Shown here in pieces: positions 2 to 35,910 of a stretch of 61,428 nt of DNA. Source of the DNA: Candidatus Omnitrophota bacterium (GTDB taxonomy: Bacteria; Omnitrophota; Gorgyraeia; Aquiviventales; JACQRC01). The position numbers and the translations under genes are program-made. The stretch covers positions 1 to 61,428 of the forward strand of contig JACQRC010000044.1 of the NCBI GenBank assembly GCA_016206665.1, in the 5' to 3' direction. The notes beneath the pieces are model-generated. The model did not search any database, was not told the DNA's origin, and worked only from the letters and a program-made list of their open reading frames with translations. How positions within the stretch are numbered: the stretch's first letter is position 1; the number at the start of each line of letters is the position of its first letter.

Positions 2-91
2 ATGATCCATTCGACTCACTCCTCACTTCGTTCGTCGTTCGCTCAGGATCATGGTGAGCGAGGCCCCATCGGGGGCCGAGTCGAACCATGA
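2..91. repeat. Family A palindromic element (TTCGA..CTCAG / TGAGCG..GTCGAA), copy 1
   Basis: ATGA-TCCA-TTCGACT...CGCTCAG-GATCAT-GG-TGAGCG...GAGTCGAA-CC-ATGA; same layout as copies at 14590, 17785, 20098, 26433 and 34864. Left edge is at the window boundary. Confidence 0.85.
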
Positions 92-1329
92 TTCGCCGAC
101 GGTCGCTGTTTGAAGACTTTCGCCTCTCAGAACGGGAGCACAAGAACCTCGCCATCTTGGAGCTGATTCGCCGGAAAGGCCCCATCACGCGCACCGAGAT
201 CTCCCGCGGCACCGACCTCAACATCGTCACCGTCTCCAACTATGTCAACTCCTACATCCAGGCCGGCCTGGTCGCCGAGCGGGGGCTCGATGTCTCCACC
301 GGCGGCCGCAAGCCGACCCTCGTTGAGCTCAACGCCAAATCCGGATTTGCCATCGGCGTGGATGTGGGGCCGACGGATGAGCTGGCGCGGGTCGAGATGG
401 TCGGCGTGCTCGCAGACCTGGCCGGCCATGTGCATCACCAGGTCAAGAAGAGCCGCGCCCGGGAAAGCATGGAGCAGGTCCTCGCGCACATTCCCGCGCT
501 GATTCATGACGTCCTGGCCGAGGGGCACGCCGACAAGGTGGACAAAAAACTGCAGGGCATTGCGGTCGGTGTGCCGGGCATCGTTGACGAAACGGCGGGC
601 ACCGTCCGGGACATGTCACGCGGCGGCATCCGCTCCAGTTACACCGCGCTGCGCGACGAACTGGAGCAAAAATACAAGGTGCCGGTGCTCATCGGCAACG
701 ACGCGACCCTGGCGGCGCTCGGCGAACTGCGGTTGGGCCTGACCAAGGAGGTGCGTCACCTGCTCTACCTCTCCTCGGATGTCAGCTGCGGCATCATTCT
801 GAACGGCAACGTCTACTGGGGCGCGGCCGGCAGCGCGGGTGAGCTGGGCATCAACCGGCCGACCGAGGATGACGTCATCGCCTGGGAAAAGAGCGCGGCG
901 TATCTGCGGCCGACCGGCTCCGACTTGGGGATTCCGGCCCAGGTGCGCAAGTTGATCGGCGACGGCATCGACTCGAAGGTGAGCCAGCTCTCCAGGGGCA
1001 AGCTCGAATCGCTGACCTTGGAGACGGTCATTCAGGCCGCGCGCCAGGATGACCAGCTGGCGATGGAAGTCATTGAGAGCGCGGCCATCAATCTGGGGAT
1101 TCGCATCGCCTATCTCGTCAATCTCCTCAATCCCGAGGTGGTGGTCCTCGGCGGCGGCATCGAGCAGGCCGGCTCGACGCTGCTCGAGCCGGTCTTCCGG
1201 ACGGTGCGCCGCTGGGCCTTCGAAGAGGCGGCGAGCCAGGTCGACATCGTTCCGGCCCAGTTGGGCGAGGACGGGGTGGCCCTGGGCGCGGCCAGCTGGG
1301 TCGCGCGGGAAGTCTTTTTGCAGGTCTGA
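88..1329 (+). CDS. ROK family transcriptional regulator (NagC/XylR-like)
   Basis: N-terminal wHTH (ILELIRRKGPITRTEIS), STGGRKP linker, GVPGIVD, NDATLAALGE, GAAGSAGELG, NLLNPEVVVLGGG. Confidence 0.92.
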   Translation: MIRRRSLFEDFRLSEREHKNLAILELIRRKGPITRTEISRGTDLNIVTVSNYVNSYIQAGLVAERGLDVSTGGRKPTLVELNAKSGFAIGVDVGPTDELARVEMVGVLADLAGHVHHQVKKSRARESMEQVLAHIPALIHDVLAEGHADKVDKKLQGIAVGVPGIVDETAGTVRDMSRGGIRSSYTALRDELEQKYKVPVLIGNDATLAALGELRLGLTKEVRHLLYLSSDVSCGIILNGNVYWGAAGSAGELGINRPTEDDVIAWEKSAAYLRPTGSDLGIPAQVRKLIGDGIDSKVSQLSRGKLESLTLETVIQAARQDDQLAMEVIESAAINLGIRIAYLVNLLNPEVVVLGGGIEQAGSTLLEPVFRTVRRWAFEEAASQVDIVPAQLGEDGVALGAASWVAREVFLQV

Positions 1330-1330
1330 C

Positions 1331-2212
1331 ATGAACGGAACACCGGCCATCGCGGGCACAGGCATGGAGCAACGGTCAAAACTGCTGATCATCGGGCTGG
1401 GCGCGGTCGCGGCCATCGGGGTGGCCTGCAGCGTCTGGCTCTTCACGAGCGCCCAACAGGCCAGCATGAATTTTCTGCGCCTCGAACAGCAGATTCGCGA
1501 GGAGAACACGCAACTGCGCGACCGGCTGGCGGCGGTTGAGGCGGAGCGCCAAGGGCTCGAAGCCCGGCTCACCACGACCGGCGGCCGTCTCGAGGAAGTC
1601 CGCCATGAATTAGAGATGGTCAAGGGCCAATATGAGGAGCTGGACGCGGAGTATCGCTCGGTCCAGGTCGAGCGGGATCAGCTGGCCGGCCAGGTGCAGC
1701 AGATGTCGACGGAGCGGGAGCAGCTCCAGGACCAGATGGCCCGCCTGAGCGGCGAAAAGAGCGCGCTGGAGCAGACCGAAGCGGAGCTCAAGCGGACCCT
1801 GGACCGCCTCGAGCAGGAAAACCGCCGGCTCACCGAGCGCCTGGATGATTTGACCCATCGCGCCGCGGCAGGCGCCGTCATCGGGGTGATGGCCGGTGCG
1901 GTGCCGACCGCGGCGATGCAGACGATCGAACTGCCGCCCATTGTGGTGCAGCAGGGTGGCGGCCGGCCGGTCACCCCGGCGCCCGTCACGGGCAAGGTCG
2001 TGCAGGTGGACCGTGCGCATCAGTTTGCCGTCGTCAACAAGGGGCGCCGGGACGGCGTGCAACAGGGGATGACCTTTCAGGTCTCCCGCAACGGCAATCC
2101 CATCGGCAAGATGACGGCCCTGCGTGTTCGGGACAACTTCACCGCGTGCGACCTGGGCCGGTCCACCGCTGCTGCGGTCGCGGTCGGAGATCAAATCCTC
2201 GTGCTGCCTTGA
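1331..2212 (+). CDS. Membrane-anchored coiled-coil protein with C-terminal beta domain (FlgT-C-like)
   Basis: ATG 1331 directly after the ROK stop (alternative ATG 1363); hydrophobic N-terminal helix, long heptad region, C-terminal GKVVQVDRAHQFAVVNKGRRDGV; paralog at 6958. Confidence 0.75.
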   Translation: MNGTPAIAGTGMEQRSKLLIIGLGAVAAIGVACSVWLFTSAQQASMNFLRLEQQIREENTQLRDRLAAVEAERQGLEARLTTTGGRLEEVRHELEMVKGQYEELDAEYRSVQVERDQLAGQVQQMSTEREQLQDQMARLSGEKSALEQTEAELKRTLDRLEQENRRLTERLDDLTHRAAAGAVIGVMAGAVPTAAMQTIELPPIVVQQGGGRPVTPAPVTGKVVQVDRAHQFAVVNKGRRDGVQQGMTFQVSRNGNPIGKMTALRVRDNFTACDLGRSTAAAVAVGDQILVLP

Positions 2213-2237
2213 CAGGCGTCGCCGACCCGTGTATTAT
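2209..2237 (+). promoter_or_regulatory. sigma70-type promoter
   Basis: TTGACA-17 nt-TATTAT, 9 nt before ATG 2247. Confidence 0.7.
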
Positions 2238-2246
2238 CACCCCAGG

Positions 2247-34173: not shown

Positions 34174-34506
34174 ATGACGAAGGAGGCTGACGCAACCTAT
34201 GCGGTCATCCAGGCGGGCGGGCTGCAGTATCGGGTCCGCCCTGGGGACCAGTTTGAGGTCAACCGCGTGGACGCGGCCGCAGGGGCCCCGGTCGTCTTCG
34301 ACCAGGTTTTGCTGGCGCGTCCCAGCGGGCAGATCCGGATCGGCCAGCCGGTGGTGCCTGGGGCCAAGGTCGTCTGCGAAGTCGTCTCGCATGGGCGCGG
34401 CCCGAAGACGATCGCCTTCAAGTACCACCGGCGCGAGCACTACAAGCGCAAGGTCGGTCACCGGCAGGATCTGACCAGGCTGCTGGTCAAAGACATTCAA
34501 CTGTAA
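34174..34506 (+). CDS. rplU: 50S ribosomal protein L21
   Basis: YAVIQAGGLQYRV, IGQPVVPGA, GHRQDLT. Confidence 0.95.
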   Translation: MTKEADATYAVIQAGGLQYRVRPGDQFEVNRVDAAAGAPVVFDQVLLARPSGQIRIGQPVVPGAKVVCEVVSHGRGPKTIAFKYHRREHYKRKVGHRQDLTRLLVKDIQL

Positions 34507-34521
34507 CGCAGGGAGCATTCC

Positions 34522-34785
34522 ATGGCGCATAAGAAGGGGATGGGGTCAACCCGGAACGGCCGGGACAGCAAATCCAAGCGGCTCGGCGTTAAGCGGTACG
34601 CCGGCGAATGGGTGACGGCCGGCTCCATCCTGATCCGCCAACGGGGGACGCGCATCTTCCCCGGCTGGAATGTCGGCCGCGGCGACGATGACACGCTGTT
34701 TGCCAAGATCGACGGGGTCGTCGCCTTTCCCAAGTCCCGCCTCATCACGGTTCTGCCCAAGCCTTCCCCCGCCCCCACTCGATAA
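34522..34785 (+). CDS. rpmA: 50S ribosomal protein L27
   Basis: [30 protein letters not shown]. Confidence 0.97.
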
Positions 34786-34863
34786 TCGCCTCCGTGAGCC
34801 AGGACGGTTCGGTGTTCATCTGTATTGACACCGAACAATGAACGATGAAGAATGAACAGTACA

Positions 34864-34938
34864 CCATGCATTCGACTCGGCCTTCGGCCTCGCTCAGCAT
34901 GGCGGTGAGCGAAGCCGCAGCGAGTCGAATCCGCCATG
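34864..34938. repeat. Family A palindromic element, copy 6
   Basis: CCATG-CA-TTCGACT...CGCTCAG-CATGGCGG-TGAGCG...GAGTCGAAT-CCG-CCATG; CCATG direct repeat. Confidence 0.86.
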
Positions 34939-35910
34939 TTCATTGACGAAGCGGTTATTGAAGTCAAGGCAGGCCGTGGCGGCAACGGTTGCGCCAGCTT
35001 TTACCGTGACCGCTGGATGCGCCACCCGGTCCCCGATGGGGGCAATGGCGGCGATGGCGGCTCGGTCCTCATCCAGGCCGACGTCAATGCGCACACCCTG
35101 CTCGACTTTCAGTACCGCCAACATTTCACCGCCGGCGACGGCCGGCACGGCAGCAGCAAGCAGCAAACCGGCCGGCGCGGCGAGGATCGTCTCATTCTCG
35201 TGCCGCCCGGCACGCTCATCTATGACGCGGACAGCGGCGCGTTGATCCAGGATGTGACGACGGTGGCACCACCGGTGACCGTGGCCGCCGGCGGGCGGGG
35301 CGGCGTCGGCAACGACACCCTCAAGCATCGCGACACGACACCGGGCGAGCCGGGCGCGCTCCGGCGGCTGCGGCTCGAGCTGAAACTGATCGCCGACGTG
35401 GGCGTCATCGGCATGCCGAATGCGGGCAAGTCCTCGCTGGTGGCCGCCATCTCCTCGGCGCGCCCGAAGATTGCGAGTTACCCGTTCACGACGATTGCGC
35501 CGGTGTTAGGCGTGGTCCGGGTGGGTGAGACGGAGCAGCGCTTTGTCGTCTGTGACATCCCCGGGCTCATCGAAGGCGCCTACCACGGCCGGGGGTTGGG
35601 CCATCAGTTCCTGCGCCACATCGAGCGGACACGCCTCCTGGTGCAGGTGGTCGATGTCTCGGGCCAGGAGGGGCGCGATCCGCTGCAGGATGTCGAGACG
35701 GTCGTCAACGAGCTCCAGCGGCACGACCCTGCGCTGCTCACGCGGCCGCGGCTGCTGTTAGGCAACAAGATGGATGTGCCGGGCGCCGTGGATCACCTGA
35801 GCCGGTTGCGGGAGGCGCGCTCCGAGCCGGTCTACGCGGTCTCCTGCACCGAACGGACCGGGCTGGAGGCGGTCGTCGACGCCATCGGGAAGATGCTGAA
35901 GACGTCATGA
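34936..35910 (+). CDS. obgE: GTPase Obg
   Basis: MFIDEA, PDGGNGGDGG, GMPNAGKSS, YPFTT, DIPGLIEGA, NKMD. Confidence 0.96.
   Translation: MFIDEAVIEVKAGRGGNGCASFYRDRWMRHPVPDGGNGGDGGSVLIQADVNAHTLLDFQYRQHFTAGDGRHGSSKQQTGRRGEDRLILVPPGTLIYDADSGALIQDVTTVAPPVTVAAGGRGGVGNDTLKHRDTTPGEPGALRRLRLELKLIADVGVIGMPNAGKSSLVAAISSARPKIASYPFTTIAPVLGVVRVGETEQRFVVCDIPGLIEGAYHGRGLGHQFLRHIERTRLLVQVVDVSGQEGRDPLQDVETVVNELQRHDPALLTRPRLLLGNKMDVPGAVDHLSRLREARSEPVYAVSCTERTGLEAVVDAIGKMLKTS

Follow-up and report, generated by a model that had tools for sequence, protein, structure and literature searches.

Members of the REP/BIME/REPIN families, which go with RAYT (Y1) transposases, are short imperfect palindromes that occur extragenically in tens to hundreds of copies, as inverted doublets at fixed spacing and as mosaic arrays. 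In IS200/IS605 elements and in their hairpin miniature inverted-repeat transposable elements (MITEs), an internal guide pairs with a target tetra- or pentanucleotide, and insertion takes place 3′ of this target without duplicating it. The palindromic elements of Rickettsia are tolerated by keeping the reading frame, and the Correia elements of Neisseria supply expression signals. MIRUs, the direct and often tandem repeats of mycobacteria, are reportedly traced to Supply et al. in 1997 where their start-codon insertion and coupled open reading frame (ORF) are concerned. As summarized in passages of a 2025 review, MIRUs seem to be inserted at start codons and to contain an internal ORF whose coupling has a spacing of −4 nt (PMC12548453). 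The present analysis concerns a family of hairpin doublets in a 61,428-nt stretch of DNA from a Candidatus Omnitrophota bacterium (the window, that is, the whole stretch analyzed), which is contig C20 of a 1.50-Mb assembly with 105 contigs, a G+C content of 64.6%, and a completeness of 76% (the source genome). By form, REP/BIME/REPIN is the closest of the described systems: the palindrome, the doublet, and the mosaic array are the same, and the source genome includes a RAYT-like gene.

The reading favored here, with a probability of about 0.65, is that the doublets belong to a small, non-autonomous, REP/BIME-like palindromic mobile family of Candidatus Omnitrophota, which is targeted to ATGA and whose lengths are kept at 3n+2 by a ribosome relay. 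It is built on the anatomy of the family, its insertion polymorphism, its ATGA target, and a frame bias measured against a control. We further infer that the mini-ORFs inside the elements are translated, and that transposition is of the single-strand IS200/IS605 type (HUH/Y1).

Each unit consists of TGAGCGAG, a variable GC-rich hairpin, and CGAGTCGAA. The window contains six inverted doublets of this unit, at each of the places given by the first-pass annotation of this DNA. The pattern TGAGCG-N8-38-GTCGAA matches the window 13 times against 0.33 expected, a count that none of 100 shuffles reached; two or three of the 13 matches are intragenic and look like chance. As had been claimed, four of the six doublets sit on gene starts, each ending 2–6 bases short of the ATG that opens a long ORF (a ROK-family regulator at 88, MshEN at 17857, GspE/PilB at 20173, and Obg at 34936).

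All four are read here on the forward strand. Doublet 1 (2–91) runs from a left ATGA (2–5) through unit(−) (10–45), the center GGATCATGG (46–54), unit(+) (55–85), and CC to a right ATGA (88–91), with which the ROK-family gene (88–1329) starts; the mini-ORF at 2–91 has 29 codons, and its ATG-to-ATG distance, d, is 86. Doublet 3 (17786–17860) is composed of a left ATGA (17786–17789), unit(−) (17793–17823), the center GCATCATGA (17824–17832), unit(+) (17833–17854), TC, and the right ATGA (17857–17860) that starts the MshEN-domain gene (17857–18303). Its mini-ORF (17786–17860) encodes MMLRFGHCGGLTQHHDERAKRVES followed by the stop, giving 24 codons and d = 71. The left ATGA of doublet 4 (20099–20176) holds, at 20099–20102, the TGA stop of an upstream GspE/PilB-type ATPase gene; unit(−) (20106–20139), the center GCATCATGG (20140–20148), unit(+) (20149–20170), and CC lead to the right ATGA (20173–20176), the start of a second GspE/PilB-type gene (20173–21909), and the mini-ORF (20099–20176) encodes MMLRFVPPAAGLTQHHGERPKGVEP and a stop (25 codons, d = 74). 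Doublet 6 (34866–34946) has a left ATG (34866–34868), unit(−) (34871–34896), the center GCATGGCGG (34897–34905), unit(+) (34906–34929), and TCCGCC ahead of the ATG at 34936, which is the start of obg (34936–35910). Here d is 70 (1 mod 3), and the mini-ORF stop at 34944–34946 lies 8 nt inside obg. The lengths and ends of all four mini-ORFs, the three relays and the obg copy, are those first annotated. The stretch 34820–34870, ahead of the obg copy, contains several ATGA motifs in succession (aATGAacgATGAagaATGAac), preceded by the hairpin ggttcggtgttcatctgtattgacaccgaac, which follows the TAA of the upstream gene.

The same placement recurs throughout the source genome. Among the 129 outward 3′ ends with enough flanking sequence, 23 have an in-frame start codon of a predicted gene within 24 nt, and in 17 of these 23 the start is an ATG at exactly +2 (GTCGAA-NN-ATG) in frame with the gene, which bears out the claimed placement on start codons. 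At the 5′ ends, such starts were found in 8 of 55 cases, at scattered offsets. The usual junction reads upstream gene–(A/G)TGA–CCC–unit(−)–GGGTCATGG–unit(+)–CC–ATGA–downstream gene, and in the surroundings displayed the left (A/G)TGA is the stop of the upstream ORF and the right ATG the start of the next gene. The element therefore occupies what would be a 4-nt stop/start overlap. In the first scan of a public genome collection, the frame closed by the left TGA was open over 50 codons or more at 25 of 35 sites. Among 1053 same-strand gene pairs of the source genome itself, 133 overlap by ATGA and 44 by GTGA, and most of these overlaps lack an element. Sorted by context, its 83 arrays comprise 20 next to an in-frame gene start, 12 at contig edges, 7 in heptamer-repeat tracts, and 44 elsewhere, the last group including chance matches within stop-to-stop frames.

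The frame of the mini-ORFs was evaluated in the source genome and in others. After exclusion of four sites cut by contig ends and of a fifth (C25) in which the downstream frame closes after 20 codons, 18 source-genome sites have both ends on the contig. Fourteen of these are relays, one of them (C92) in two steps; two are in-frame fusions; and two, of which obg is one, overshoot by 8 nt. The frame-walking routine mislabels long chance-open frames in this GC-rich genome and was used only for the single-step sites C43 and C75, which were re-checked. For the ATG-class doublets of the source genome, core length mod 3 is uninformative alone, since the flank lengths differ. Two pattern scans provided a further 51 sites with a left NTGA and a right ATG in other genomes, and these figures, like those from the search by center below, hold among the matches listed. 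The distance d was 2 mod 3 at 39 of the 51 sites, 1 at six, and 0 at six, and followed the series 53, 56, 62, 65, 68, 71, 74, 77, and 80. Relays were formed at 37 sites, early stops at 13, mostly at the TGA of TGAGCG, 24–25 nt before the ATG, and an in-frame fusion at one, with no overshoot. Relay mini-ORFs of the proposed kind thus exist at 14 of 18 sites in the source genome and at 37 of 51 in others.

Such a bias could arise as a founder effect, in which a neutral, selfish repeat descends from master copies of 3n+2 length, the mini-ORFs stay untranslated, and the downstream genes start independently. The counts are indeed dominated by lengths of 56, 62, 68, and 77, one sequence cluster holds 24 of the 51 sites, and no relay is formed at 13 of the 51 sites nor at 4 of the 18 in the source genome. 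Yet when the sites were grouped by single linkage at 0.90 similarity, 19 of the 23 resulting clusters were 2 mod 3 (p ~2e-6 against one third), and the lengths extend from 53 to 80 in steps of three. The two halves of the element, moreover, vary mod 3 but compensate each other's length: the left and right half lengths mod 3 are (2,0) at 29 sites, (1,1) at 6, and (0,2) at 4, all other combinations making up 12. Three young insertions in the relative G009 have a common left unit and right units of 37, 31, and 34 nt, from which d values of 77, 71, and 74 result (counted by hand). The control, 36 distinct doublets of the family that lack ATG flanks, is unbiased, splitting 15/9/12 by length mod 3, and none of the 51 sites overshoots into the gene, which likewise counts against neutral descent. 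A founder effect is therefore considered unlikely. The mod-3 bias foreseen across copies appears both by site (39 of 51) and by cluster (19 of 23), and the proposal that selection keeps coupling-preserving lengths is supported, short of proof, by these counts.

According to excerpts of a published study, termination-reinitiation at ATGA overlaps is established (PMC6728339), and the favored reading builds on it as follows. Copies would survive where the stop and start of operon genes overlap in ATGA, or at an ATGA start that stands alone. The upstream gene would retain its TGA in the left copy, and the downstream gene would regain its ATG from the element's 3′ ATGA. This ATG would, however, be buried in a strong hairpin, with no obvious ribosome-binding site supplied by the element: in the predicted RNA folds, either the two ATGA regions are paired with each other or the outer stem encloses the right ATG (−32 to −72 kcal/mol, z-scores −2.0 to −6.2), and the bases just before the right ATG (GAGTCGAACC) contain, by sequence, no obvious Shine-Dalgarno match. 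Expression of the downstream gene would consequently depend on relayed ribosomes. A ribosome would end the upstream gene at the left TGA, restart at the overlapping ATG, melt the element by translating it, stop at the right TGA, and restart once more at the overlapping ATG of the downstream gene, and selection would retain stop-free lengths of 3n+2. In this model, mini-ORFs with an early stop would still open the 5′ half of the stem, which may be why that class is tolerated; together with the 8-nt overshoots, the early stops indicate that an exact relay is not obligatory.

This arrangement is similar to that of MIRUs. Both are short intercistronic operon repeats on start codons with an internal ORF that overlaps the next gene by −4 nt (ATGA-type), and in both, as far as the passages of the review extend, coupling is taken to let the repeat insert while expression is hardly affected (PMC12548453). 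The elements described here likewise lie between co-directional genes on the start codon, their internal ORF overlapping both the upstream stop and the downstream start. The frame logic, which the first-pass annotation had not recognized as described, consequently has a precedent in the MIRUs as portrayed in those passages (PMC12548453). The likeness is one of description. Unlike MIRUs, the Omnitrophota element, from another phylum, is built as an inverted hairpin doublet in which a core of 17 nt is conserved; it has an NTGA target, revealed by the empty sites, and lengths that follow a 3n+2 series. Among the papers listed by a literature search, with supplements outside its reach, there was no report of such a repeat in Omnitrophota, nor of a start/stop-codon MITE with translational coupling.

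The target was examined by comparing filled and empty sites. The genomes nearest to the source belong only to the same order (40–49% protein identity) and are too distant for base-level comparison; the relatives G009 and G023, of one genus, were compared at three loci. At all three, the G023 flanks are 86–93% identical to those of the G009 doublet junction, and the junction is ~70–90 nt shorter. Two of the empty G023 sites read GCGGG-ATGA-GCC and GGCTGA-ATGA-TCT, and in the third the ATGA is likewise single and follows a diverged stretch. The filled G009 sites read ATGA-TCC-unit(−)-GGATCATGG-unit(+)-CC-ATGA in all three cases. TCC and CC, the bases by which the pairing with the center is extended, recur in each of the three insertions and are missing from the empty sites; the arms thus take up no target beyond the tetranucleotide. 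Empty ATGA overlaps were also observed in L077 and L094, at junctions of gspE-family genes, and the pilT/MshEN junction of L085 has a degenerate unit.

These comparisons bear directly on the model of the first-pass annotation, according to which templated synthesis copies the local target into the arms and the center and so tailors each copy. It is true that doublets of the window have central 9-mers of their own (GGATCATGG, GCATCATGA, GCATCATGG, GCATGGCGG, and GGATCAATCC), and that left flank, center, and right flank change in coordination. Only ATGA, however, is common to empty and filled sites, three independent insertions agree in the additional paired bases, the 9-mers recur genome-wide as a few classes, and the right copy is ATGA even where the left is GTGA or CTGA. 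Templated copying was not borne out by these observations, and we regard it as highly improbable.

The asymmetry between left and right copies is seen in a larger sample, obtained by searching the public genome collection with an 18-letter pattern for the center alone. Of at least 97 centers found, 51 have a right-hand anchor and 46 without one were dropped, with ~35 chance matches expected. The right flanks are CCATGA in 40 cases, TCCATG in three, and CCATGG and AGCATG in one each, the remaining six being unrelated and chance-like; the left flanks are ATGA in 33, GTGA in six, and CTGA in one. A duplicated GTGA target is expected to show GTGA on both sides, yet GTG is found on the right in 0 of 45 against a left GTGA in 6 of 40 (Fisher p = 0.009), and GTG is accepted as a start in the source genome, where 44 overlaps are GTGA. 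On its simplest reading, this pattern suggests that the element carries its own 3′ ATGA and inserts 3′ of NTGA, with no true duplication. Nested copies are asymmetric in the same way, the left side reading TCGA and the right side ACGA. The flanking direct repeat first annotated is accordingly present, mostly as ATGA, but it is not a target duplication, as 7 of 40 left copies are GTGA or CTGA while the right always contains ATG. A classical MITE of a DDE transposon was also set aside. It would account for the inverted ends, but its target-site duplication of fixed length conflicts with a shared flank that differs from class to class, between 0 and 5 nt, and with copies that differ between the sides, 7 of 40 on the left being non-ATGA against 0 of 45 lacking ATG on the right.

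In the favored reading, the usual mobile form would be the inverted doublet c2–unit(−)–center–unit(+)–c1–ATGA, with a center that is the reverse complement of c1 + ATGA + c2, and the main class would land directly 3′ of an NTGA tetranucleotide. IS200/IS605 elements behave comparably toward their targets: the element lies 3′ of a tetranucleotide, the apparent repeat would be made of the target plus the element's 3′ end, and the center is complementary to both. This is a resemblance, not a demonstration. In contrast to IS200/IS605, there is no linked TnpA or TnpB, one center would serve both ends, and the complementarity covers 7–9 nt rather than 4–5. The pairing of center and target, together with an ATGA apparently borne by the element, points to an ATGA-directed transposition mechanism.

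The exact unit occurs 93 times in the source genome (47 forward, 46 reverse), in 27 simple −+ doublets and in longer arrays, with a spacer of 8–11 nt. For the 100 units whose flanks are complete, the 5′ flank pairs with the 3′ flank in an outer stem of 5.39 bp on average, as compared to 1.76 bp when flanks from different units are combined, and at least 4 bp are paired in 83 of the 100 against ~13 of 100 in this control. The flanking repeats with their complement at the center, as originally described, are therefore real. The 8–11-nt center of a doublet, being common to both units, is the inner half of both outer stems, and it is for this reason that the outer flanks resemble a direct repeat with its complement at the center. 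Genome-wide, the centers fall into the recurrent classes GGGTCATGG, GCATCGTGG, GGGTCAGTGC, and GGGCAAGTGC, plus rarer variants, and 53 distinct inner hairpins are found among 100 units. Both outer and inner stems vary in sequence with pairing retained, and subclasses with an altered center have matching altered flanks (ATGA, CGA, TCAG, and ATTGA). Unit lengths alone show no period of three.

Orientation alternates along the arrays, in contrast to the tandem direct arrangement of MIRUs, and the longer arrays are mosaics. In several arrays, one doublet lies within the TTCGA|CTCG end of another unit, where TTCGACTCG has become TTCGA...CACGACTCG, and the split between TTCGA and CACGACTCG marks a nested insertion. 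Identical copies are present at many loci, and many contig ends fall within copies. Contigs from other DNA runs span the elements at 17786–17856 and 20099–20172, some of them ending there; among the matches listed from contigs of four DNA runs, there was no joint that skips an element. The sequencing runs listed for the locus include no RNA run. An Rfam search of the whole window at the gathering score placed no family on the elements, nor did a search of 18673–22200 at E up to 10. As opposed to REP and REPIN sequences, many of the Omnitrophota elements lie on start codons rather than after stops, and end in ATGA.

The exact core is present in 28 of the 41 nearest genomes and in 79 of 401 Omnitrophota genomes sampled across the phylum (73 of 282 genera), while the reversed pattern gave 0 matches. 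Where it occurs, there are 1–100 copies per genome, with bursts of 93, 100, 27, and 24, and the surroundings vary from AT-rich to 67% G+C. Mobility is favored by these bursts, by identical copies and nested insertions, and by polymorphism within a genus, and the constancy of a 17-nt core across such different G+C contents argues for recognition by something conserved. The 18-letter center pattern also matches many other phyla, including Gluconobacter, Streptomyces, and Kribbella isolates; in most of these matches the remainder of the unit is lacking, and they are probably due to chance. Full doublets were found in a few metagenome-assembled genomes (MAGs) labeled Elusimicrobiota and Planctomycetota (L128, L139, L164, and L178).

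A conserved core raises the question of whether the element might instead be domesticated and act in cis, the start-codon hairpin being selected as a gate that makes downstream translation depend strictly on translation upstream, or as a binding site for a conserved host protein. Domestication would explain the same 17-nt core throughout a phylum of very different G+C content, and is in line with its identity in 79 genomes from 73 genera. Certain junctions are filled in different genomes, among them L006/L045, L025/L027/L055, and source contig C65 with L043 and L046, and a single unit lies between rpsN and rpsH in both L048 and L053. The stems vary but their pairing is kept, and there is no link to a transposase. 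Presence and absence, on the other hand, differ within a genus at all three loci compared, copy number ranges from 0 to 100 with bursts, copies are identical or nested, and most ATGA overlaps of the source genome are without the element, which in addition has no Rfam match at E up to 10. On this evidence, domestication in place of current mobility is improbable.

A linked Y1/RAYT gene was sought in the source genome, 40 relatives, and 5 further genomes, with flanks scanned. The sole Y1/RAYT-like gene of the source genome (C89:24390–24716) specifies 262 aa with the HUH motif SNHVHLVV and scores 64 bits to NF047646, under the cut-off of 80. It adjoins an AT-rich stretch and is bracketed by inverted copies of a different repeat of ~27 nt (...AGAACCGTCCC...; L001 1160–2030, equal to C89:24050–24920), which has only 11 short matches genome-wide. 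A clean unit was found within 1.5 kb of 2 of 32 Y1-like loci, both in the 100-copy genome, the locus of the source genome having only a weak match with two mismatches. As an autonomous parent, the only pair of units 250–3500 nt apart was considered and rejected, as it encloses argC-argJ-argB. Thus, in contrast to REP/REPIN–RAYT systems, the RAYT-like gene is not flanked by clean copies of the present unit, and unit and gene do not co-occur across genomes; the linked RAYT (Y1) envisaged in the first-pass annotation was not recovered. A more specific version of the favored reading is a guide-directed, single-strand (HUH-like) hairpin element specialized on ATGA, whose center would pair with the target and with the element's own 3′ ATGA, which would restore both signals, and which, limited in length by the relay, has become widespread and was perhaps co-opted as a translation gate dependent on the upstream gene. 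We put this forward tentatively, as a possibility that is rather less likely than not to be correct.

Several observations weigh against a mobile element maintained by ribosome relay. The copies are related by descent, and site counts overstate their independence; the cluster count, in turn, hangs on the 0.90 cut-off and on single linkage, and one cluster comprises 24 sites of mixed length. Thirteen of the 51 sites have an early stop, and two source-genome sites, including obg, overshoot by 8 nt. The gene starts were taken from a purpose-built, rough ORF scorer. Placement on start codons belongs to the ATGA class and not to the family as a whole, with 20 of 83 arrays abutting starts and the TCAG, CGA, ATTGA, and GGATCC classes located elsewhere than at gene starts. 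Junctions occupied in several genera could be old, retained, and perhaps functional copies, as opposed to repeated insertions. Concerning mobility, a Y1_Tnp match is missing from G003, G012, G013, G022, and G023 despite their 5–25 units, and ten relatives carry Y1_Tnp without any unit; the co-occurrence test is weakened by the incompleteness of the MAGs (73–93% complete), which does not explain the five misses. An autonomous parent was not found in the source genome.

The two remaining doublets of the window lie away from gene starts. Doublet 2 (14590–14670, forward strand) is intergenic and consists of the flank ATTGATCC (14590–14597), unit(−) (14598–14619), the center GGATCAATCC (14620–14629), unit(+) (14630–14663), and the flank GGATTGA (14664–14670), with ATTGA as the common repeat. 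Doublet 5 (26433–26493, forward strand), of the TCAG class, has TCAG at 26433–26436, a shortened and degenerate unit(−) (26441–26454), the center GCACTGACCC (26455–26464), unit(+) (26465–26486), and TCAG again at 26490–26493. Its repeat-to-repeat distance of 57 is in frame and open if an ORF begins at the ATG at 26403; such an ORF would translate the doublet ahead of a hydrophobic N-terminal segment (26403–26540), its true start being unclear, and a Pfam search of the surrounding 26313–27581 gave no match. In this possible frame, the 57-nt copy is reminiscent of the Rickettsia palindromic and Correia elements, small palindromes in or beside genes, although sequence, hosts, and targets all differ. 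To our knowledge, a stop/start-overlap relay has not been ascribed to either.

Doublet 5 is flanked by AGCACTA-type heptamers, in tracts of AGCACTA and AGCACTC at 26420–26515, and CAGCAAT/CAGCCAT tracts lie beside TCAG-class doublets elsewhere in the genome (C51:25380–25470, C62:4720–4800, C89:55240–55360, and others). Comparable short tandem repeats occupy the intergenic spacers upstream of the MshEN gene in the relatives L090, L093, and L096; these heptamer tracts may be the first element family of the first-pass annotation. A single unit(+) at 20060–20096 (forward strand), absent from the first-pass annotation, lies inside the 3′ end of the GspE/PilB-type gene at 18306–20102 and is translated as its last residues. 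Elsewhere, a 22-nt unit within the open reading frame of an argB-like gene (AA_kinase; L213 3786–3807, equal to C72:8085–8106), where the Pfam match is split in two, is possibly an in-frame insertion into coding sequence. The window also contains a c-di-GMP-I riboswitch aptamer (RF01051, 53.7 bits against a gathering score of 35) at 23192–23291 on the forward strand, close downstream of the genes for type II/IV secretion, at a distance of a few kilobases from a GGDEF/GAF/HAMP gene (15179–16663).

For Omnitrophota genomics, these repeats have the practical consequence that they break assemblies and shift start-codon calls in MAGs. For translation, they amount to a replicated natural experiment on termination-reinitiation, in which dozens of junctions have received a structured spacer of 55–300 nt within an ATGA overlap; if only phase-preserving lengths persist there, the limits that distance and structure place on translational coupling become testable. 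The convergence with MIRUs from an unrelated palindromic element suggests that landing on start codons, combined with a ribosome relay, may be a general route for repeats into compact genomes. Should the more specific reading of an HUH-like element serving as a gate be true, translation of the downstream genes at these junctions in Omnitrophota would be strictly dependent on translation of the genes upstream.

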